Assembly: GCA_964422155.1 (NCBI GenBank)
Contig: CAYQZZ010000011.1
Location: 1-45,218, forward strand
Direction of reading: 5' to 3'
Source: an uncultured Dehalococcoidaceae bacterium
GTDB lineage: Bacteria > Chloroflexota > Dehalococcoidia > Dehalococcoidales > RBG-16-60-22
Length of the DNA: 45,218 bases
Shown: piece after piece, positions 20,968 to 44,816 of the stretch
Position numbering within the stretch: position 1 is the first letter of the stretch
Layout: each line of letters opens with the position of its first letter
The notes under the pieces: generated by a model
What the model was told of the DNA's origin: nothing
The model's input: only the letters and a program-made list of their open reading frames with translations
Databases searched by the model: none
Position numbers and translations under genes: made by a program

Positions 20968-22731
20968 ATGTCAAGTGAAGTACGTTTTTCAGTAATAAGC
21001 CCCGAAGCTGGAATCCTGAAGGGTACGGGTGGATTTGGACCTCCCGGTATGGGCGGACCTCCGGGTAGACCTCCCGGTGGACCTCCGCCGGGTATGGGCG
21101 GACCGGCACTGTCTTCACCATCTTTTGCCAAGCGGCTGGACACACTGGAGAACAAAACTGTGTATCTGGTGGATATCGGTTTCGGGGGCGGCTATAATTT
21201 CATGCTGCAATTGCAGAAGTGGTTTACCGAAAATATGCCGTCCGTCACCGCGATAGTGAAGCGGAAACCGGGGAATGTGTTCATGGACGATAAGAATGAC
21301 CTCTGGGAGGAAATTAAAGCAAAGGGCCATGCCGTTGTCCTCGGCGTAGCCGGCTGACCGGGCTGTATTTCAGCGGTCGCTGGAGGCAGCACGAAACTTG
21401 AACAGAACTATGGTATCCCGGTTGCTCCTGTCTCAAGTTACACGATGGAAAGCGTTGCCAAGGATAACCCGAGAGCCGCTTCTTTACCTTTCATATATAC
21501 GCCACTTCCTGTGATAGGTATGTCTCCTGAAGTCCTCGACAGGTATATCGCAGGCAACGACCCGGATACCGGTAAACCTGTCATCAATGAAATAATCGAC
21601 GTATTGACAAAACCGGTAAGCAAAACGAAGCTGGCGCCTGAATCTCCCAAAACCGTAAAAGTCGGCGCTCCCCAGGAATTCCTTGAACCGGATACTGAAG
21701 ACAACTTGCAGCGTCTATTTTATGAAAGAGGGTGGACGGACGGATTACCCATCATACTTCCTACCGAGGAGCGGGTGAAGAAAATGCTCGCAGGCACCGG
21801 CGCTTCTCCGGACGAAGTGGTTGGTGAAACATTCCAGATGGATACCGGAAAACTTGTCAAGTACACTGTTGCCAATATTGCGGTTATGGCGGTCATGGCC
21901 GGCGCTAGGCCGGAACATTTTCCCGTGATACTGGCTGTTGCGTCCACCAGACAATCGTCGCTTATGCCCTCTACAACAGCCTTTTCAGCCATGCTTTTGG
22001 TGAATGGGCCAATTCGCAATGAGATTGGTATGAACTCCGGTATTGGCGCATTCAGTCCGGTAAATATGGCAAATTCGGTAATCGGCAGGGCATGGACGTT
22101 GATGAGCATTTGCTGGGGATATGCTAAGCCTAAAAAGACGTTGTGGAGTTCACAGGGGAGTAATCTTATCTATAATAATATGTGCGTTGCGGAGAATGAG
22201 GAGAGGAGCGTCTGGACGCCTTTTCATGTTGATAAGGGTTTCAAGGCTGAAGAGAGTGTGGTCAGTATCTTCCGGGGATGGGCTGTTATCAACAGTACCG
22301 GAGCAGCCTCCAACCGGACACTGGGGGAGGAACTGAATCTCGAGCTAGCCGTGATCCCGCCGCTTGATTCCGCGGCTACTATAATAATGGACCCGCTTGT
22401 TGCCAGGAATCTGAAGGAGAACGAGGGCTTTAGTACCAAGCAGGATTACTGCCGCTGGTTATCTAAGAACATCAAAATGCCGGCAGGACAATACTGGAAA
22501 ACAGATTATATAGATATGCTGGTGGCCTCTGAAGCATACAAGGGAATAGAGCCTTACGCTTCCTGGAAAAAGCTCCCCGATGACGCGCTGATAGCTCCCT
22601 ATCATAAACCGGACAATATTAATATCATTGTCGTAGGCGGAGAGACAAGTCCCTTATGGAAAGCTTCGGATTATCGCTACACAGCCAGCGTATCTATTGA
22701 TAAGTGGCGAGCGAATAAGTTGGATAATTAA
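20968..22731 (+). CDS. Candidate selenoprotein A (about 587 aa; in-frame TGA at 21355-21357 read as Sec in G-V-A-G-U-P-G-C). N-terminal Pro/Gly-rich linker plus Rossmann-like domain, C-terminal about 450-aa domain of unknown function
   Basis: ORFs 20968-21357 and 21445-22731 are in the same frame, separated only by TGA. The 87 nt between them keeps protein-level conservation with the paralog (E..YG[IV]P.AP[VI]). The paralog has TGA at the aligned position. A GU-loop hairpin lies 5 nt downstream. GGAGGA RBS at 20968. Confidence 0.6.
21362..21390 (+). promoter_or_regulatory. Putative bacterial SECIS element for selenoprotein A
   Basis: Lower stem GCUG(21362-65)/CAGC(21387-90), upper stem CAGC(21371-74)/GCUG(21379-82), apical loop GGUC(21375-78). 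The loop G is 18 nt from the UGA. This is the same loop as the E. coli fdhF SECIS. Confidence 0.4.
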
Positions 22732-22842
22732 TGCGAGGACGGAACACGCGGGCTTCCGGATAAGCCGGCTGATTATGACTAATTTTTCACGGGCTGTTTG
22801 CCGTGCGTTTAATAATTCGGAATTTAACCAATAAGGAGAGAG

Positions 22843-24534
22843 ATGAAGAAGAACGGAAAAATAACAGTATTAGACCCGAGAGGCCAGCCTACCGGCATCT
22901 TCGGGCGGCGGCTTGACCCCGATTCGCCTCCCTTTGCTATTCACGACCCCGTAAACCAGCCGAGAGATACGGCTGAAGCCTTGGGCGCACTTAAAATGGC
23001 GCCGCGCCTCGATAGACTGGAAGGCAAGACCGTTTACCTGGTTGATACGGGATTTGCCGGCGGCGCGGATTTTATGGCGGAGGTCCAGGACTGGTTTACC
23101 CGTCACCGACCGGACGTGAAGACCGAGCTGCGCCACAAGAAGACCAGCATGTTCACCGACGAGCCGGAGCTCTGGGCTGAAATCAAGAAAAATGGCGACG
23201 CGGTCGTCTTCGGCGTGGGCGGCTGAGACGGCTGTTCGGCGAGTATCGCCGAGTTTGCCCGGACGATGGAGAGCGACTACGGGGTGCCGACAGCTCCTAT
23301 TGTCACCGCCCGTTTCGCGGACTATGTCCAGCGCGACGGCCGGAGCCACGGCATGAACCTCCGCTGGAGCTTTCCCCCCTACCCTGTAGGCTTCATCCCC
23401 CGCGAGACACTGCATGGCTATGTCGAGGGCAATGACCCTGTTTCCGGCGTACCCCTCATGGAGGAGGTTATTTCCGCCCTCACCCAGCCGCTGACGGACG
23501 CAGAGAAAACCTACAAGGCGGAAAAGAGACCGAAACGGCCGCGCCTGCTCGAACCGGATACCGAGATGAACCTCCACCGCCTCTTTTTGGAAAACGGCTG
23601 GACTGACGGTCTCCCTATCGTCCTGCCCACCGAAGAGCGCGTAGCGGAGATGCTTACCGGCACCGGCCGCGACCCCCAGGAATTCGTCGGCATGATGTCC
23701 GTGACAACCCATGAGGAGAGGCTCCAGTATGCGGTGGAGAGAGTCGCAGTCATCGCTGTCATGGCCGGGGCCAGGCCGGAGCACTTCCCGGTTATCCTGG
23801 CGTTAGGCGCCTCGGGGCGGCCTTCCATGCCCAGCTCGACGACTTCCTTCGCGAGCATGATGGTGGTAAACGGTCCCATCCGCGACCAGATAGGGATGAA
23901 CAGCGGCCTTGGCGCCTTAAGCCCGGTCAATTACGCCAACTCCGTTATAGGCAGGGCATGGACGCTGATGAGCATTAACTTCGGGGATGTCCGGCCTGGA
24001 GCCACATTCACTGCCAGCACCGGAACCACAATCAATTACAACAACATGTGCTACGCCGAGAACGAAGAGAACAGAGTCTGGCAGCCTTTCCACGTGCGTA
24101 AAGGCTATAAGGCAGGTGAAAGCACGGTGAGCTTTTTCCGAGGCTGGAGTGTCCTCGGCTTCAATACTGGCCCAGTCCAGCGGATGCTGGAAGTCATGAA
24201 AAGTATCGGCGGCCCCTTCGGCGGCTCGTTTACTTTCGTTATCGACCCCCTCGTGGCAAAGAGCCTGAAAAAGGAAGGCTATGATGACCCGTTCAAGCTG
24301 AGTGAGTGGCTCGTGAACCAGACGAATGCCCGTTTCAAGCGCCCGGAGATGGTGAACTTCGTCGTCGTCGGCGGTGAAATGAACCCGATGTGGGTTACGA
24401 CTGATTTCTCTTATTTCCAGACGGTCGTTATAGACCCGTGGATTCCTAAAGCCGGCATCAAGAAAGACGCCAGACCGCTCCGGATGCCGGTGGCATTAGC
24501 CTGTAAGGATGGTTCCTGCGGCATCTCGCATTAG
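22843..24534 (+). CDS. Candidate selenoprotein B (about 563 aa; in-frame TGA at 23224-23226 read as Sec in G-V-G-G-U-D-G-C), paralog of selenoprotein A but lacking the Pro/Gly linker
   Basis: ORFs 22843-23226 and 23266-24534 share a frame across a single TGA. The N-terminal domain aligns with A (LEGKTVYLVDTGFAGG / LENKTVYLVDIGFGGG; VVFGVGGU / VVLGVAGU). The C-terminal domain aligns along its length (GWTDGLPI[IV]LPTEERV, AVMAGARPEHFPVILA, NMC.AENEE..VW). AAGGAGAG RBS. Confidence 0.6.
23235..23253 (+). promoter_or_regulatory. Putative bacterial SECIS element for selenoprotein B
   Basis: Stem UUCGGCG(23235-41)/CGCCGAG(23247-53) with apical loop AGUAU. The loop starts 16 nt after the UGA and contains GU. 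Confidence 0.35.
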
Positions 24535-32377: not shown

Positions 32378-33184
32378 CTATCGGGGTGGCGTTGGAGGCG
32401 GTGCCGGTGCCGGCGGTAAAAGCGGCAGTCCTCCGGCCACATACAGGGCTTGACCCGTAACGTATGCCGCGAGTTCCGAAGCCAGGAATAAGGCGGCTCC
32501 GGCCATATCCTCCGGAGTTCCCACTCTCTGCATGGGTACTTTTTTACCCAGCATATTAAAAAAGCCGTCCCGCTCTTTTTCTGTCATCTTCCCCACCATG
32601 GCGTCATAGAAGTTTGTCCTGATAGGCCCCGGCAATATACAGTTTACATTGATGCCCAGCGGCGCCAATGCGTTAGCCAGGTCGGTGGTGAAGCCGATAA
32701 CCCCGGCTTTAGCGGTATTATAATGAATCTCATGAGCCGGGGGCTGGACGGCGCCTATGGAAGAAAGATTGATGATTTTACCGTATTTCCTTTTCTTCAT
32801 GTGAGGGACGACATACTTGCAGAACAGGAAGTCGCTTTTCAGGTTTAAGGCGAAGGTTTTATCCCAGGCTTCTTCGGTCAGGTCTTCAACAGGAATATGC
32901 GCGGCTATCCCCCCGGCATTATTAACCAGGATGTCTATCTTGCCGTATTTTTTTACGACCTTCTCCACGGTATCGCCGACCTGCTGGCCGCTGGTGACAT
33001 CGCATTTGATGAAGATGGCGTTGCCGCCTTTTTTCTTAATTTCGGCGACGACTTCCTCTGCTTCCTTTATGGCGATATCGGCGATGGCGACGGCACAGCC
33101 TTCCTCCGCGAATTTAAGGGCCATGCCCCTTCCCATTCCTTTAGCGCCCCCGGTGATGATGGCTACTTTGTCCTTTAATAACAT
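32378..33184 (-). CDS. SDR family oxidoreductase with Pro/Ala-rich C-terminal tail
   Basis: 268 aa. ITGGAKGMGRGMA motif. AGGAGG RBS. Paralog of 2928-3710. Ends ...LLPPAPAPPPTPPR. Confidence 0.9.
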   Translation of the reverse strand: MLLKDKVAIITGGAKGMGRGMALKFAEEGCAVAIADIAIKEAEEVVAEIKKKGGNAIFIKCDVTSGQQVGDTVEKVVKKYGKIDILVNNAGGIAAHIPVEDLTEEAWDKTFALNLKSDFLFCKYVVPHMKKRKYGKIINLSSIGAVQPPAHEIHYNTAKAGVIGFTTDLANALAPLGINVNCILPGPIRTNFYDAMVGKMTEKERDGFFNMLGKKVPMQRVGTPEDMAGAALFLASELAAYVTGQALYVAGGLPLLPPAPAPPPTPPR

Positions 33185-33295
33185 TTTTCCTCCTTGATTT
33201 ATTTATTGAATCACCAATAACCAAGATATAAGTACCAAACAAATCTCAATATTCAATAATCAATGTCTAAAATTTTGGTTATTTGAATTTGGTTA

Positions 33296-33372
33296 TGGGT
33301 CATTGTTTGGTTATTGTTTCTTGTTACTTGGTTATTGTCTGGTTATTGTCTCTTGTTATTTGATTATTTTCC
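33296..33372. repeat. T/G-rich short tandem repeat tract (TTGGTTATTGTYT-like units)
   Basis: ttggttattgtttcttgttacttggttattgtctggttattgtctcttgttatttg. A related tract sits on the other flank of the same SDR gene (32340-32375, cttgtttcttggtacttggtat). Confidence 0.6.
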
Positions 33373-33373
33373 A

Positions 33374-33799
33374 CTAGTCCGTTGTATTGCCCACTCTTGA
33401 GTATTTTGCCGTCACGGCGACGTCCACGAACAGGACAGGTTTGTTTATCCTGGCGAAGTTTATCGGGCCGTGCATCAGGCCGGCCGGGATATATGCCGCC
33501 GTGGGCGACTTGATAATATGCTTTTCCTGCTCTTCGCCCAGCGTAATCTCGATTTCTGCATCGAAATCCCTGGCGTTATTCGGGTTTGCCGAGAAAAAGC
33601 TCAAATACTGGGGGAACTCATGCTTGTGGGGCTGGGATATCATCAGGTGGGGGCCTGTGATGTAAATGCTATCGATGGACAGGTGCCCCCCACCGAACTT
33701 GTCCAGGTGCCTGGTGCTGGTAACGTGGGAGCCCTCGTGTTTCGGGTCCTCTTTAACGACTTCCGTGGTAAGATATTTATCGTATTTCGTTTTGGCCAT
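33374..33799 (-). CDS. Cupin-like small protein family member 2
   Basis: 141 aa starting MAKTKYDKY. AAGGAG RBS. Motifs PHKHEFPQY, DFDAEIEITLGEEQEKHIIKSPT, PAGLMHGP. Confidence 0.7.
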   Translation of the reverse strand: MAKTKYDKYLTTEVVKEDPKHEGSHVTSTRHLDKFGGGHLSIDSIYITGPHLMISQPHKHEFPQYLSFFSANPNNARDFDAEIEITLGEEQEKHIIKSPTAAYIPAGLMHGPINFARINKPVLFVDVAVTAKYSRVGNTTD

Positions 33800-33889
33800 G
33801 TTTCACTCCTTATCTAAAATACACTTAACATAACTCTGGAAACAATTCACGCCTGCCCAACTTCGAATTGTTTCCTCATTTAATTCTTT

Positions 33890-34858
33890 TCACAGTGGCT
33901 TCAGGCGCGGGTGCTTCTTGATTGTGTACCAGTACGTGTTCCAGCCAACTTTATCAAGCGGTATAAGCCTGCGAAAACGCTTTTTAACCTCTGCCTCTTC
34001 GGCAATCTCGATGAAGCCCGGGGCAACATGCTCGTTGATAACTTTGACGATGGTTTCCCAGTCGACCTCTATAGCACCCCGGGGGCAAATCTGCTCGCAG
34101 TACCAGCACCTGTCGCACCTTTTCCTTTGAATCGGCGGGGATGTGGACATATTAATGCTGTTGGTGGGGCAGTTGTCTATGCAGAGTGTGCATTTGGGAT
34201 ACAGGCATTTCTCTCTATTGAACCTGAAGTCGAAGCTCCGCAGGCCTGTCTGCTCCAGCCGCTCGGCATTTGGCGGCGCTCCGGCCTTACGTCCCTTTTT
34301 CAATTGCCAGCTATTGCCCCGCCCCGGATAGAGCTCGTCATATTCGCTTCCTCGCGGCAATGCGGGAACCAATCCTGTGTCTCCCGCATATATCTTGCTA
34401 CTTCGCTCCGCCATTTCCCTGCCGAAGCTTTTCGCCTCGTCAAGGTCGATGGCATCGGGATGACCGTCGGTAAAATAGGGCTTGGGTTTCTCCGGCATGG
34501 TAACGCTGCAGTACCAGTTCTTCCAGCCGATAACGGTGAGGCCCTTCTGTGTCATCATGGGCACCACCCTTGCCAGGAAGCGGCCGGGGAGAAGGCCGTG
34601 GGTGCAGAAAGCGAAACCGTGCTTCCCATCCACGGCGTTCATGCTATATTCGATGAAATTCATGAGATTGGCCGGTTCCCGCCGGTGCCAGACCGGGGCG
34701 CCCAGTCCGATTAAATCATATTCGGCCAGGTCTCCGGTATCCACGTCCTGCAGTCGGGCGAGGTCACAGGGCATGAGTTCACTAATGCCGGATTGTACAG
34801 CCTCGGCAATTTTTTTGGTATTTCCCGTCTGTGAGTAGTAAATTACAATACTTTTCAT
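33890..34858 (-). CDS. Flavodoxin-like domain fused to a 2x[4Fe-4S] ferredoxin domain
   Basis: N-terminus MKSIVIYYSQTGNTKKIAEAV (flavodoxin FMN-binding motif). C-terminus CTLCIDNCP...CDRCWYCEQICP (two CxxCxxCxxxCP motifs). Confidence 0.8.
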   Translation of the reverse strand: MKSIVIYYSQTGNTKKIAEAVQSGISELMPCDLARLQDVDTGDLAEYDLIGLGAPVWHRREPANLMNFIEYSMNAVDGKHGFAFCTHGLLPGRFLARVVPMMTQKGLTVIGWKNWYCSVTMPEKPKPYFTDGHPDAIDLDEAKSFGREMAERSSKIYAGDTGLVPALPRGSEYDELYPGRGNSWQLKKGRKAGAPPNAERLEQTGLRSFDFRFNREKCLYPKCTLCIDNCPTNSINMSTSPPIQRKRCDRCWYCEQICPRGAIEVDWETIVKVINEHVAPGFIEIAEEAEVKKRFRRLIPLDKVGWNTYWYTIKKHPRLKPL

Positions 34859-34916
34859 CTTATTTTAAAGGTGTTTAGTAATATTCCTGTTTTTTATAAT
34901 GTGTCTACACTTTTAC

Positions 34917-35009
34917 TGTCATCCTGACCCCGATGCAATCGGGGGAAGGATCCGCATCCCTCCCGTCAAAGAACGGATTCTTCAGTCGCTGCGCTCCTTC
35001 AGAATGACA
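34917..35009. repeat. MITE-like structured repeat copy A (TGTCATYC ... GAATGACA termini)
   Basis: About 93 bp, near-identical to 36206-36300. Terminal inverted repeats tgtcatcctga/tcagaatgaca. Internal hairpins ccccgatgcaatcggggg and ggatccg...cggattc. Confidence 0.6.
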
Positions 35010-35033
35010 ATCATATAACACCTTTCATGTCGA

Positions 35034-36185
35034 TTATTGCGGTATCATCTCCGGCAGGCCCGGCAAAGCGGTGGTCATCCACCTGGTGGCATCCCTGCCG
35101 ATGAAATACATGTCTCCAATCATGGTAAACGGCGCTTTCCCGCCTTTGCATCTTACCATAGGATGGACGGCATAGACCTCATCGGTCAGGATGGTCCACT
35201 CCATGTAGTCGCGCTCATGGGGACCGGCGGTAATATAGGGGGCGTCCCCATAAGACAGCCCGACGGCATGGCCCAGCTTATCGCATTCGAAACCCCAGTC
35301 GTTTACCAGATCCTCAATTTTTTGACCGGCTTCCGTAATTTCCAGGCCGGGGCGGAACTCCCGCACTATCATCTGTCTCATTTCAGCCCAAAGAGAGAAC
35401 ATTTTTTTGTACACCCCCTTGGGTTCCTCCCACCAGTAACCGCGTATCATTTGAGCGCCATAGCCCGCGTTACGGGTGAACTCCGGGGAAAACGTCACCG
35501 GGTTCGGCTTCTGTATCACCGTCGGGCCGGGACGGTAAGGATAAGCCGCCTCCGGTCGACTGTGTATTAAAATAATCCTGTCGATAATATCGTGGGCGGT
35601 CAGGACTTCATTGGCTTTATTGACGACCTGTTCTTCGGTGAGGCCGGGCTTCAAATTAGCTAGGAAGGTGTAATGGGCCAGGTCAGAGATGCGGATGGCG
35701 TTATCCATGATAGCCAGCTCCTCGCGGCTCTTGGGACCTCTTATTTCACCGAAAAGACGATGCGCTTCCACGAGCCTGACATCGGGGCAAAGCTCGGAAA
35801 AAGTCTGGTATTCGAACACCGGCCAGAAGCGGAAGCTGTCTATACCGACCTGTGTTTTCTGGTGATTGAGGTCGATTATAATTTTAGCCGCGTCTATGGC
35901 CAGGTTAAATGAGGAGCGGATATTCTCCGTTTCCACCCAGCAGCCCTGTTTGACCAGCTGCTCGCCCGTCATGCCCGTGTTGCTGGGGATTAGAAAAACT
36001 GGCTCGCCATCGACCGGGAAAATCACCATGTTCTGCTTGCTGCCCCAGATATGCGTCAGGTAGTGGACAGGCACGCCCAGCTGGGTGCCCCCGTAGACGA
36101 TAAGCGCCGAAAGCCCGGCTTTCTGCAACGTCTTCCGCAGCAACGACCAGCGGCGTCCTTTTTCTTTCAGACTAAGTTCCGGCAT
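35034..36185 (-). CDS. M24 family metallopeptidase (Xaa-Pro dipeptidase/creatinase-like)
   Basis: 383 aa. Creatinase/prolidase N-domain plus pita-bread catalytic domain. GGGGAGGTGA RBS. Bracketed by two copies of the MITE-like repeat. Confidence 0.85.
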   Translation of the reverse strand: MPELSLKEKGRRWSLLRKTLQKAGLSALIVYGGTQLGVPVHYLTHIWGSKQNMVIFPVDGEPVFLIPSNTGMTGEQLVKQGCWVETENIRSSFNLAIDAAKIIIDLNHQKTQVGIDSFRFWPVFEYQTFSELCPDVRLVEAHRLFGEIRGPKSREELAIMDNAIRISDLAHYTFLANLKPGLTEEQVVNKANEVLTAHDIIDRIILIHSRPEAAYPYRPGPTVIQKPNPVTFSPEFTRNAGYGAQMIRGYWWEEPKGVYKKMFSLWAEMRQMIVREFRPGLEITEAGQKIEDLVNDWGFECDKLGHAVGLSYGDAPYITAGPHERDYMEWTILTDEVYAVHPMVRCKGGKAPFTMIGDMYFIGRDATRWMTTALPGLPEMIPQ

Positions 36186-36205
36186 GGGTCACCTCCCCTC
36201 GGTAT

Positions 36206-36300
36206 TGTCATTCTGACCCCGATGCAATCGGGGGAAGAATCCGTCTCCCAGGATTACGGATTCTTCGTCGTCCGCCTGAAGCGGACTCTTCAGAATGACA
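36206..36300. repeat. MITE-like structured repeat copy B
   Basis: TGTCATTCTGACCCCGATGCAATCGGGGGAAGAATCCGT...ACGGATTCTTC...CCGCCTGAAGCGG...TCTTCAGAATGACA. Nested palindromes. Same orientation as copy A. Confidence 0.6.
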
Positions 36301-36311
36301 AAAAATAATAA

Positions 36312-36872
36312 TTACCACTCGCGTTTCATCTTCTTCGCCAGCTTGAGAACCCTCTCCTCGCTTTCATAGCCCTGGTCGATAAACAGCAGATTGTCTCTCT
36401 CTTCATCGGACACCAGCTCCTGGTAAGATTTCTCCGTGTGTGTGGGCGATTGTTCGACGGTTACCATGATAAACGGCCTCGTTACTTTTCTAATTATCCA
36501 GGGTCCATGTATAAAATCGGCAGGTAAATAGACCAGGTCGGAGGTAGTGAGAATGTGCTTTTCCAGCTCCGGGCCCAGACAAAATTCAACCTCGCCGCCC
36601 AGGTCCAGCGGATTTTCCGGGTCTGTCCCGAGATGTATCACTACTTCGGGAAATTTATGTTTATGCGGTCCGTGCCCCATCTGCTCCCATGAGGAAACTC
36701 CGGGCAATCCCTGGGGAACGACAGGTACCCAGTGAATGTAATACTGGTGGCTGCCCAGATAGGCGTTATTATTGACTTTATCATCCGCAAAGGCTACAAT
36801 CGCACCGGTGCCGGCCGGGTTCCACGGCCTTGGTCCGGATAAAATATATTTGTCGTATTTTGTTTTCGCCAT
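36312..36872 (-). CDS. Cupin-like small protein family member 3 (with about 50-aa C-terminal extension)
   Basis: 186 aa starting MAKTKYDKY. AAGGAG RBS. Motifs PHKHKFPEV, GGEVEFCLGPELEKHILTTSD, PADFIHGP. Confidence 0.7.
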   Translation of the reverse strand: MAKTKYDKYILSGPRPWNPAGTGAIVAFADDKVNNNAYLGSHQYYIHWVPVVPQGLPGVSSWEQMGHGPHKHKFPEVVIHLGTDPENPLDLGGEVEFCLGPELEKHILTTSDLVYLPADFIHGPWIIRKVTRPFIMVTVEQSPTHTEKSYQELVSDEERDNLLFIDQGYESEERVLKLAKKMKREW

Positions 36873-36883
36873 TTTCTTGCTCC

Positions 36884-37297
36884 TTACTTTTTGGTTACCT
36901 CGACAATGCCGGCGTCAGCGTCAACCTTAACCCAATCACCGGTCTTGATTACCTCCAGCGGGTTTTTATCCAGTTCGGTCATGGCCGGGGCGTGTAAAAG
37001 TACAGCGGATAAAGCGGCCTTGGTGGTCATATCGTTGAAAATAAGAGCCTTGGGCGCGGTGCCTACCAATCGGGTAGCATGGAATGCCATCGATGTCCCC
37101 GAAGAACCCTTGGTCCCGGGAAATACGAGCACCTTGTCCTTAAAACTCTGCCCTCTTAACTCGTGGCGCCTTTCCGTAATGATGCCTTTAACCGCGTCAA
37201 TACCGCCCCATCCGGATATGGTATCTCTGGTGACGAGCGCTTCGCCCTCAACACAACCGCCAACGACTTTCCGGCCGTGAAGCACTATTTTCTTCAT
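36884..37297 (-). CDS. Aconitase X swivel-domain subunit (DUF126)
   Basis: Start MKKIVLHG. Its ATG overlaps the TGA stop of the upstream large subunit (ATGA). GGAAGGGAGAA RBS. DUF126-like length and composition. Confidence 0.75.
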   Translation of the reverse strand: MKKIVLHGRKVVGGCVEGEALVTRDTISGWGGIDAVKGIITERRHELRGQSFKDKVLVFPGTKGSSGTSMAFHATRLVGTAPKALIFNDMTTKAALSAVLLHAPAMTELDKNPLEVIKTGDWVKVDADAGIVEVTKK

Positions 37298-38610
37298 TTG
37301 AGTTCTCCCTTCCATTTCCCGGTGACAGCCGCCTCGATACAGTCTTTTTGCGAACCGAACCAGGTAGGGAAGCCGAGCATAGCGGGCATATAGTGCGCGT
37401 GTTTGGCCGAATCGGTAGCCGCCGTCTTGACACCCTTGGGTGAGATATGGCTGATGCAGGGGCAGGTATCGGTCATCAGGACAGCTCCGGCTTTTTTAAT
37501 AACGTCCGTCAGTCCTTCCTGGTCGGCGATAGTTTTGAGCGCATGCGGCGTAAAAATCCAGAGGTTAACGTTAGCGTGGACATGCTTGCCCTCCAGCAGC
37601 CGGGCCGCGTTCCATACCTCTTCCAGCGTATAGTGAGGGCAGCCCAGCATAATAAAGTCGACATTAGGGTCGGTGGCAGAAGTCAGGTTGTCATAAGCCT
37701 TCTTCCTCTCCGCCTTACCGAATTTCAGCTTCGCGACGGGTTTTTTCTTGCCGAAAGCCTGCTCCAGGGAATTCGCTTCCGGCGTGAAGCCGACGACGTG
37801 GTACAGCTCGACGCCGCCCGAAGAGGCGGCCGCGGCGCCGTGATGCTTAAGCCGGGCGATATTGGGGGCTTTACGTACACCATTAATCACGGGAACGTGC
37901 TCCTGTACTATTTCCCCGACGTAATAGCCCAGAAGACCCCAGTCCATAACGCTCTCCGGCTGGTATTCAACCTCCACCAGATGCGTGCCCAGACGGTTTT
38001 CATCGAGGTGATAGCCCCAGTAAGGCGTTTTGCCTACCAGCATGGAGGCCGTGGCGCTCTCCATCCCCTCGATATTGGTGCGTCCGCCCAGCACGGAATT
38101 GCAGTAGATGACGGCCGATGATTCTATCCAGGCGCAGTGCTCACCCATGACAGGGACATTGCCAAGAAGGTAAGGGGTACAACTATGCATAAGCTGCATA
38201 CCGATGCGGGCGCAGACTTTTTCCGAGAGGACGCCCATTTCATGGCGTTCGGGGGAGATGCCCTGGATTTGCCAGTTTTCCGGGTCCATTTCCCGTATCA
38301 GGCGGCAGGTGTAGACCTTAGCGCGGGGGATTTCAAAGGGCTCATCGCTATCAAGGTACATGCGTGAGAGGGCGGCGTCAACTTCATTTATTGTGGCCCC
38401 GGGTTTCGGCGCTGTGTAAGCGCCGGCGGAAATCGAAACACAGACGTTGTTAGTATCGACCAGCCTCTCCGCTCCCAGGGCTTCCCCGTACTTTACGAGC
38501 AGCTCCATGGCCTTCTGATAAGCAATGCCTTCACTGCCTTCCAGCAGAGCCTTTTCTTCGTCGGTCAGTTTCATATTACGTTTACCATCCTGTATAAAAA
38601 TCCCCCTCAT
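37294..38610 (-). CDS. Aconitase X catalytic subunit (DUF521)
   Basis: About 430 aa. DUF521-type N-terminus (LTDEEKALLEGSEGIAYQKAMELLVKYGEALGAERLVD). Start ambiguous between 38610 and 38574. Translationally coupled to the small subunit. Confidence 0.8.
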   Translation of the reverse strand: MRGIFIQDGKRNMKLTDEEKALLEGSEGIAYQKAMELLVKYGEALGAERLVDTNNVCVSISAGAYTAPKPGATINEVDAALSRMYLDSDEPFEIPRAKVYTCRLIREMDPENWQIQGISPERHEMGVLSEKVCARIGMQLMHSCTPYLLGNVPVMGEHCAWIESSAVIYCNSVLGGRTNIEGMESATASMLVGKTPYWGYHLDENRLGTHLVEVEYQPESVMDWGLLGYYVGEIVQEHVPVINGVRKAPNIARLKHHGAAAASSGGVELYHVVGFTPEANSLEQAFGKKKPVAKLKFGKAERKKAYDNLTSATDPNVDFIMLGCPHYTLEEVWNAARLLEGKHVHANVNLWIFTPHALKTIADQEGLTDVIKKAGAVLMTDTCPCISHISPKGVKTAATDSAKHAHYMPAMLGFPTWFGSQKDCIEAAVTGKWKGELK

Positions 38611-38659
38611 ATCCCCCTTTACAAAAGGGGGAGGTTACGGATTGCTTCGGTCTCTGATG

Positions 38660-38716
38660 TTCCCTCGCAATGACAGGGAGGCAGGGACTGGATTCCCGCT
38701 TTCGCGGGAATGACAT
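38660..38716. repeat. Degenerate copy C of the MITE-like repeat (GGATTC-hairpin-GAATGACAT end)
   Basis: cgcaatgacagggaggcagggactggattcccgctttcgcgggaatgacatc. Shares the GGATTC...GAATGACAT architecture with copy D. Confidence 0.35.
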
Positions 38717-44716: not shown

Positions 44717-44816
44717 TGTCATTCCAGCCTTCTCTCAATTGTCATTCCAGCGAAAGCTGGAATCCAGCGGTGGAGAAAGGGCGGCCTGGATTCTCGGGTC
44801 AAGCCCGAGAATGACA
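44717..44816. repeat. Copy D of the MITE-like repeat family
   Basis: tgtcattccagc (duplicated), ccagcgaaagctgg, ggattctcgggtcaagcccgagaatgacat. Same TGTCATTC/GAATGACA termini. Confidence 0.5.

Follow-up and report, generated by a model that had tools for sequence, protein, structure and literature searches.

In a 45,218-nucleotide stretch of DNA from an uncultured Dehalococcoidaceae bacterium (assembly GCA_964422155.1, contig CAYQZZ010000011.1, positions 1 to 45,218; hereafter the window), the gene for an M24 peptidase lies between two short structured repeats, copies A and B. We hold it probable, at about 80%, that A and B are different, gene-less members of a double-hairpin family found across bacteria, that this family is a variant of the Neisseria NTS and of the Ssn-related motifs (SRM), and that it is tied to GIY-YIG nucleases of the Ssn type. 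This view is carried by selection on the hairpins within single arms, by the association of a GIY-YIG gene with the arms, and by insertion polymorphism without target duplication.

Copies A and B occupy the spacers on either side of the M24 gene, within a run of genes that are all encoded on the minus strand (32378-38610). Read in the minus-strand sense, copy B lies 11 nt past the stop of an unannotated gene of 186 aa and 20 nt ahead of the M24 ATG (36185), and copy A lies 24 nt past the M24 stop (35034) and 58 nt ahead of the next ATG (34858). The initial annotation had placed the two copies at the coordinates listed below, in the same orientation and with inverted termini, within 25 nt of the M24 start and stop, and had described nested internal palindromes in each; the sequence bears out positions, orientation and termini, the distances to M24 are 20 nt for B and 24 nt for A, and folding recovers the palindromes in both.

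34917-35009, plus strand: copy A, a doublet without a gene, made of two inverted Ssn-type hairpin arms around a short central stem-loop; 93 nt, in the spacer between the M24 stop and a flavodoxin-4Fe-4S gene
34917-34952, plus strand: copy A arm 1, TGTC-ATCCT-GA-CCCCGATGCAATCGGGG-GA-AGGAT-C, with a C/G variant pair inside the arm
34976-35009, minus strand: copy A arm 2, read on the minus strand as TGTC-ATTCT-GA-AGGAGCGCAGCGACT-GA-AGAAT-C, with a GCGCAGC mini-hairpin inside
36206-36300, plus strand: copy B, a gene-less inverted doublet; 95 nt, in the spacer past the stop of the 186-aa gene and ahead of the M24 start
36206-36241, plus strand: copy B arm 1, TGTC-ATTCT-GA-CCCCGATGCAATCGGGG-GA-AGAAT-C
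36259-36300, minus strand: copy B arm 2, read on the minus strand as TGTC-ATTCT-GA-AGAGTCCGCTTCAGGCGGACGAC-GA-AGAAT-C
35034-36185, minus strand: M24 gene (Creatinase_N and Peptidase_M24 in Pfam), the bracketed resident gene, outside the elements

The termini of both copies are TGTCATYCTGA and TCAGAATGACA, for which the window holds four exact matches and one match with a single mismatch elsewhere (1.2 expected), and both copies carry the arm with the CCCCGATGCAATCGGGG hairpin at their low-coordinate end. They are not near-identical, as had been claimed: mean column identity is 81%, with indels, and the two agree only in the 11-nt termini and the left arm (34/35 nt). The central stem-loops differ, and the right arms contain unrelated inner hairpins (AGGAGCGCAGCGACT versus AGAGTCCGCTTCAGGCGGACGAC, minus strand). 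On these alignments, A and B belong to one family as distinct members with a single arm in common; no further copies of the A/B type were found in the window. Assembly duplication, which the initial annotation had raised as an objection, is not the explanation, because both copies recur in place in an independent ENA assembly (L177; loci from other sources are given L numbers) and because Logan contigs end within the A/B elements, as repeats would cause.

Two termini 60-90 nt apart were sought in IMG/VR and in GTDB genomes. This pattern of termini plus gap was found at at least 120 GTDB loci, in more than 15 bacterial phyla among the matches listed, and in 48 IMG/VR contigs; by our own reckoning, chance would account for about 4 matches in the genome collection and fewer than 1 in the viral one. 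The repeat is real, multi-copy, structured and intergenic, in line with one of the readings in the initial annotation, and it is not confined to this site. Cultured hosts among the matches listed include Hymenobacter, Mucilaginibacter, Pedobacter, Flavobacterium and Bifidobacterium, and metagenome-assembled genomes among them represent Acidobacteriota, Chloroflexota (with Dehalococcoidia), Nitrospirota, Desulfobacterota, Firmicutes, Planctomycetota, Verrucomicrobiota, Gemmatimonadota, Synergistota, Elusimicrobiota, Patescibacteria and Proteobacteria. A full-text literature search for the terminal sequences returned only primers and other unrelated matches.

A near-universal plan is evident among the scan matches: TGTC-ATYCT-GA, a hairpin, GA-AGRAT-C, a variable centre, and the inverse of the same arm. 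Folding of the whole element gives a closing stem and three hairpins, a picture that the family data reveal to be misleading. Among 47 parsed doublets, the variable Y and R positions show complementarity inside the arm in every case (47/47 left, 47/47 right) and between arms in only 17/47; with 94/94 complementary inside the arms against 17/47 between them, each arm is therefore a hairpin unit of its own. The initial annotation's terminal inverted repeat with internal palindromes holds insofar as the inverted termini are real, and under-describes the ends, since by sequence the 11-nt repeat is merely the outer end of a self-folding arm of ~35-43 nt.

Covariation points the same way. In the intra-arm helix of 109 arms of fixed length, changes on both sides were found at 6 of the 7 pairs, and compensatory cells numbered 96 versus 29 +/- 7 in shuffles, with 0/500 shuffles as high and slid controls collapsing; the pattern shows the signature of selection on the intra-arm hairpins. 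Besides the canonical and TCTGA arm types, ACCCT, ATGCT and ATTCC variants were seen. The inner hairpins come in 202 distinct forms among 348 arms, with lengths of 5-49 nt and GCGNAGC as the commonest, and 60% of them close with at least two Watson-Crick pairs (9% when shuffled). GCGNAGC is a DNA-type GNA mini-hairpin. Every arm of A and B folds alone as single-stranded DNA (ssDNA) with its 5' TGTC unpaired, the same as the canonical NTS of the window; predicted energies are -10.4 kcal/mol for copy A arm 1 (z -3.6), -9.6 kcal/mol for copy B arm 1 (z -3.8) and -32.9 kcal/mol for the whole of copy B (z -8.2). All four arms (4/4) read TGTC-stem...stem-C and so possess the GTC 5' and C 3' flanks of SRM, which are imperfect palindromes of 20-50 nt that form hairpins in ssDNA.

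These flanks matter to a recently described enzyme. The Neisseria NTS, CGTCATTCCCGCGMAVGCGGGAATCYRG, occurs in hundreds of copies (Chenal et al., Nat Commun 2025, PMC11893778) and has dRS3 as its core; NTS-like SRM are found across phyla, and the partner SsnA is a 94-aa single-domain GIY-YIG protein (PMC11893778). Ssn enzymes of Neisseria and Wolbachia bind the hairpin as ssDNA only and cut a few nt 5' of GTC, the upstream GTC being required for cleavage and the C after the palindrome for binding (PMC11893778). The A/B arms resemble NTS and SRM in having the same 5' GTC and 3' C and the same outer stem, GTC-ATTC...GAAT-C, and the family is likewise multi-copy, intergenic and often gene-bracketing, with a single-domain GIY-YIG gene of ~95-110 aa between inverted copies. 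Unlike NTS and SRM, the A/B-type stem is broken after 5 bp by a conserved GA/GA internal loop, beyond which comes a free inner hairpin of 5-49 nt.

Partner genes were sought first among open reading frames (ORFs) bracketed by arms and then with jackhmmer over all ORFs in 1.4 Mb of loci. Four GIY-YIG ORFs occur in those loci, and all of them (4/4) lie beside or between arms. Among 27 arm-bracketed ORFs from other genomes, GIY-YIG is the sole recurrent Pfam family; the remainder are housekeeping and phage genes without relation to one another (such as DnaJ, GidB, MatE, phage portal, capsid, terminase), and no Y1 or DDE transposase is among the 27. The bracketing of such unrelated genes indicates that bracketing, that of M24 included, is a by-product of intergenic insertion. 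Gene-carrying relatives have a GIY-YIG gene of 93-111 aa between arms, and the cleanest unit, L168 2984-3374, consists of a forward arm, 16 nt, an ATG, an ORF of 111 codons and a reverse arm, the TGA stop falling in the terminal GAATGACA; metagenome genes, too, often end inside the right arm. The gene in L220 is flanked by arms with a GTCCGCC...GGCGGAC hairpin similar to that of copy B arm 2. Of 80 homologous metagenome genes, 47 have, within 200 nt, both a forward terminus on the upstream side and a reverse terminus on the downstream side, and 71 have at least one terminus on the proper side; no canonical SRM was found near the associated protein clade in 80 loci. The GIY-YIG gene is also present on a viral contig, L044.

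The L168 protein is a single-domain Pfam GIY-YIG protein. Its weak PDB match to UPF0213 protein BH0048 (1ZG2, E 6e-4) is uninformative, with the query unreliable past about position 100. The gene of viral contig L354, which has an exact Neisseria-type NTS on both sides, encodes a product 45% identical to it (E 4e-25), and on sequence resemblance we file the partner protein as a putative Ssn homologue. A literature search pairing GIY-YIG with repetitive extragenic palindromic (REP) sequences or miniature inverted-repeat transposable elements (MITEs) returned nothing relevant. The ssn ORF of L168 (3036-3371) and those of a public protein cluster (P0121-P0135) are called through the right arm and acquire a repeat-encoded tail, ...RDSSLRSE, and the arm-tailed 111-aa product is annotated 'putative endonuclease'; arm-encoded peptides are likely to be a frequent origin of extended or spurious ORF calls.

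Comparison of the M24 locus among relatives, annotated as Dehalococcoidales, separates filled from empty sites. The order 186-aa gene, M24, flavodoxin, 141-aa gene and SDR is kept in L172 (M24 95% identical), L178 (94%), L176 (91%) and L174/175 (88%), and L173 (M24 91%) has the same genes with three extra ones between M24 and flavodoxin. The spacer between the 186-aa gene and M24 is 17-20 nt, with no element, in L172, L173, L174/175, L176 and L178; the gap between M24 and flavodoxin is 5 nt or an overlap, again with no element, in L172, L174/175, L176 and L178. L177 (M24 97%) has both elements at the same sites. Because M24 is in place without the elements in these relatives, it is a resident gene, and the elements are later and independent arrivals; judged from these alleles, A and B were inserted recently, after the split from the relatives with 94-95% identical M24, at two separate spacers. 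The initial annotation had expected strains lacking M24 to retain a single copy as an empty site, and the polarity proves to be the reverse, with empty alleles that keep the gene and lack the elements.

Orthologous copy A is the same in the window and in L177 save for the inner hairpin of one arm (window 34917-34952, L177 5559-5592), which is swapped as a block, CCCCGATTGCATCGGGG in the window and CCCTTCAGCCGAAGGG in L177, and the window version is that of copy B, 1.3 kb off; the swap suggests, on sequence, conversion of a very short tract between copies. Between copy A and M24, positions 35010-35033 hold a remnant, TCGACATGAAAGG, that resembles the old flavodoxin start 5 nt past the M24 stop. 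On the other side, 34859-34916 is an AT-rich stretch of 58 nt between copy A and the present ATG, with a weak promoter-like match at 34907-34880 on the minus strand. The extra genes of L173 (6235-7920) encode a 116-aa protein, a DUF488 protein and a 269-aa protein, with a phage-type integrase ~4 kb upstream; the junction between M24 and flavodoxin seems to be insertion-prone.

Several results weigh against assigning A and B to an Ssn-linked family. No ssn gene is present in the 45-kb window. The published degenerate SRM pattern, HGTCWYN(0-2)YYVSBRHN(0-5)WNVSBRGN(0-2)RNCYNB, matches none of 210 A/B-type doublets (0/210), the arms of A and B included; it misses this type, whose GA/GA loop and long inner hairpin it cannot accommodate, and since the pattern is its authors' search heuristic and not a definition, we file A and B as an SRM variant. 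Copy A arm 2 has a predicted stability of just -1.7 kcal/mol, barely stable, a figure from a model that treats GNA triloops and sheared G.A pairs poorly. The junctions are not clean: copy B has about 9 and 4 extra nt at its flanks, and copy A has 13 and 58 extra nt, with ATGAAA on both sides. GIY-YIG nucleases hydrolyse DNA without religation, so that the nuclease alone cannot explain insertion. Finally, the direction of dependence might be the opposite one, with the gene as an invader of pre-existing doublets.

The elements are a variant of a recently described kind, and their manner of movement we infer as follows. The long form of the family consists of an arm, an ssn gene of ~95-110 aa and an inverted arm, ~400 bp in all; its short, non-autonomous version is what A and B seem to be. 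A putative Ssn encoded elsewhere in the source genome would recognise the A/B arms in trans when the DNA is single-stranded, during replication, repair or DNA uptake. With the arms in inverted orientation, either strand would offer one cleavable arm at its 5' end, where nicks may seed copying or recombination, not clean cut-and-paste. Nick-seeded copying fits both the absence of target duplications and the untidy, microhomology-like junctions. On incoming DNA, NTS-gene-NTS leads to lower transformation in Neisseria (PMC11893778); by analogy, in a cell with a cognate Ssn, an arm-gene-arm arrangement would reduce replacement of the bracketed gene by incoming ssDNA.

A bolder and more tentative proposal is that the ~400-bp unit of arm, ssn and inverted arm could be an autonomous mobile element, in which a hydrolytic GIY-YIG ssDNA nuclease of ~100 aa replaces a transposase. 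Doublets like A and B would then be its MITEs, spreading by nick-primed copying without target duplication across more than 15 phyla (among the matches listed) and partly on phages, and the modular inner hairpin, which is swapped between orthologous copies, would be free to vary, since recognition would rely solely on the two flanks (GTC and the 3' C), the outer stem and the GA/GA junction. If true, the arm-ssn-arm unit would rank among the smallest such elements in bacteria.

The strongest alternative, which we nonetheless think unlikely, makes the doublets primary: they would spread by host recombination, replication slippage or another factor, the GIY-YIG gene would be a secondary selfish invader homing into them, and A and B would not derive from a gene-carrying element. 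GIY-YIG homing endonucleases are known as invaders. At L168, a gene-less doublet of the same arm type lies 54 nt upstream of the gene unit, and the short and long forms have in common the arms and ~6 further nt on each side, with no clear internal deletion boundary between them; in L146, L089 and L044 the gene stands beside complete doublets, not within one. Such an origin is harder to reconcile with the forward terminus upstream and reverse terminus downstream of 47/80 genes, as expected of one bounded unit, with an ORF that often ends in the right arm and has its stop codon in GAATGACA, and with a published enzyme that binds the hairpin itself (PMC11893778).

Gene context bears on a different possibility, namely that the elements act in cis at the RNA level, as an mRNA stabiliser or processing site or as an attenuator or terminator, and were selected for this in the operon of the 186-aa gene, M24 and flavodoxin. 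Copies are mostly intergenic, 141/181 being free of overlap with a crude ORF call, with a median of 38 nt to the neighbouring 3' end. Stable RNA folds of the minus strand (-42 and -52.5 kcal/mol, z -3.8 and -7.6) and the location of both elements between co-directional genes, with B 20 nt before the M24 ATG and by a Shine-Dalgarno-like GAGGGGAGG, would suit such a role. We consider it improbable, given that the elements have no Rfam match at gathering score and nothing relevant up to E 10, that the scan found zero T-runs or terminator-like sites at them, and that close relatives do with spacers of 17-20 nt upstream and of 5 nt, or an overlap, downstream. The element is also strand-symmetric and occurs in all gene contexts (tandem/convergent/divergent 81/20/15), and its commonest inner hairpin, GCGNAGC, is of the DNA type. 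The published protein, moreover, shows no RNA binding (PMC11893778). The terminator or attenuator function offered by the initial annotation fails on the same grounds, and an effect on mRNA stability may be a side effect of the elements. A hammerhead or K-turn reading of CUGA...GAAG was dropped: the CUGANGA/GAAA core spacing and a 3-nt bulge are both absent, and Rfam gives no match.

Hairpin doublets of other kinds invite comparison. Neisseria intergenic mosaic elements (NIMEs) occur in a single genus as arrays of RS blocks, with short, variable, intergenic segments bounded by inverted dRS3/NTS hairpins. The A/B family resembles dRS3 and NIMEs in its short, variable intergenic segment between inverted hairpins, and differs in forming single units of ~85-110 bp with the same termini in more than 15 phyla among the matches listed. 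REP sequences, with their BIME and REPIN arrangements and REP-associated tyrosine transposases (RAYTs), are like it in the inverted, self-folding hairpin doublet of ~100 bp, the absence of target duplication and a presumed recognition of ssDNA; they are unlike it in that the A/B-family partner is a hydrolytic GIY-YIG nuclease, the flank is GTC and not GTAG, and the sequence is conserved across phyla. IS200/IS605 elements and their palindrome-associated short derivatives also carry hairpins at their ends, have ssDNA as substrate, leave no target duplication and include short forms without a gene; unlike the inverted A/B arms, which lack a conserved flank motif, their hairpins are both on the same strand and insertion is next to a specific tetra- or pentanucleotide. 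The published authors likened NTS-ssnA-NTS to an insertion sequence and to REP/RAYT, leaving mobility as a hypothesis (PMC11893778).

That A and B might be a REPIN- or BIME-type doublet mobilised by a RAYT (a Y1 HUH transposase of the IS200/IS605 superfamily) is suggested by the same architecture of two inverted, self-folding units of ~35 nt with a short spacer, ~100 bp long, intergenic and without target duplication; it appears very improbable, as the 27 arm-bracketed ORFs include no Y1_Tnp and GIY-YIG recurs among them, the GTAG-type 5' tetranucleotide is absent, and the termini are identical in more than 15 phyla (among the matches listed), as opposed to lineage-specific REP/RAYT pairs.

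The mobilised gene cassette of the initial annotation, in which A and B would bound M24 as a composite transposon, integron-like cassette or recombination module, is suggested by two copies in the same orientation within 25 nt of the gene ends and is refuted: five relatives keep M24 without elements (identical synteny in L172, L174/175, L176 and L178, partly conserved order in L173), so it was the elements that came to M24; A and B differ in half their length, no attC-type GTTRRRY/RYYYAAC core is present, the termini being TGTCAT/ATGACA, and unrelated genes are bracketed in other genomes. Its term MITE-like is apt in the sense of a short form without a gene, belonging to a small element with inverted ends, since in longer relatives a GIY-YIG gene lies between the same arms. 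A classical MITE derived from a DDE-transposase insertion sequence, which multi-copy elements of ~95 bp with terminal inverted repeats TG...CA might recall, can be set aside as highly improbable, with target-site duplications of k = 2-8 bp at chance level in 187 copies, no transposase between the arms of the 27 bracketed ORFs, and arms that are self-complementary hairpins with intra-arm covariation. Around the copies, neither a conserved flank motif nor an inverted repeat running on into the flanks was found.

Further arms occur elsewhere in the window.

38640-38715, minus strand: two tandem arms in the spacer upstream of the AcnX gene, from the sequence
38688-38715, minus strand: near-NTS arm, TGTCATTCCCGCGAAAGCGGGAATCCAG, with only the first base off the Neisseria NTS consensus
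38640-38674, minus strand: degenerate ATTGC-GA...GA-AGCAAT arm, from the sequence
44718-44816, plus strand: canonical-type inverted doublet (arms 44740-44767, plus, and 44786-44816, minus) and a partial duplicated terminus

The published SRM pattern finds three sites in the window (38688-38715, 44740-44767 and 44786-44816), for 0.29 expected. A purely structural scan (GTC, then a stem of 5 bp or longer, then C) detects 10 sites, namely nine arm sites and one probable chance match, the nine being eight arms and the partial duplicate of the forward terminus at 44718-44730, 23 nt upstream of the doublet. The eight arms make up four intergenic sites, all in the last 10 kb (34.9-44.8 kb); window 1-34 kb has no arms save the probable chance match, in coding sequence at 22723-22779. 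L174 7125-7197 has arms identical to those of the window doublet at 44740-44816, at a different locus and with a different central spacer. This doublet of L174/L175 sits in the spacer between the flavodoxin and 141-aa genes, which is ~20 nt in L176 and L177 and holds an unrelated hairpin in the window. Two other features of the window are a pair of ~71% identical segments, 21652-22123 and 23548-23989, spaced 1866 nt apart and presumably tandem paralogous genes, and several SDR genes with a common conserved nucleotide-binding-site stretch (3159, 5977, 24802, 41600).

Exact fits to the Neisseria NTS consensus (28 nt, e.g. CGTCATTCCCGCGAAGGCGGGAATCCAG) also occur in Dehalococcoidia, on the chromosome of L062 (333-5380), and close NTS variants were seen in genomes of Nitrospirales, Coxiellaceae and Parcubacteria (loci with NTS-like 28-mers: L062, L054, L087, L116). 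A search of viral contigs with the 24-nt NTS core found at least 120 loci. On phage contigs (L010 1055-2490, L011, L042, L043; L005, L008, L018, L050) doublets bracket structural genes, encoding a 376-aa protein, capsid and portal. In Pedobacter nototheniae (L107 3512-4076) forward arms form a tandem array with a period of ~135 nt, not the usual single doublet. L022 4157-4259 is internally expanded, with a hairpin of CCCTGA x5 paired with GGGAAG-type repeats, and internal expansions are seen also in L017, L018, L021, L029, L048, L050, L051, L054 and L079; some expanded copies have extra terminal TGTCATYCTGA sequences 20-30 nt apart. Such expansions suggest slippage at the ends.

In conclusion, M24 is an ordinary resident gene between two insertion-prone spacers. 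The 2025 Ssn paper only hypothesised insertion-sequence behaviour of NTS-ssn-NTS; the filled and empty alleles described here bear on that hypothesis, and are dated: relatives whose M24 is 94-95% identical lack the elements, and one at 97% has them. The occurrence of identical arms at separate loci of sister genomes (the window and L174) bears on mobility as well. For annotation, the consequence is that gene callers run into the arms and so extend or create ORFs. The arm variant was overlooked by the published pattern, yet it is widespread over bacterial phyla and phage contigs. The four A/B arms, together with the L168 and L220 proteins as candidate cognate enzymes, provide concrete substrates for the question of whether, and in what way, a ligase-less ssDNA nuclease spreads repeats.

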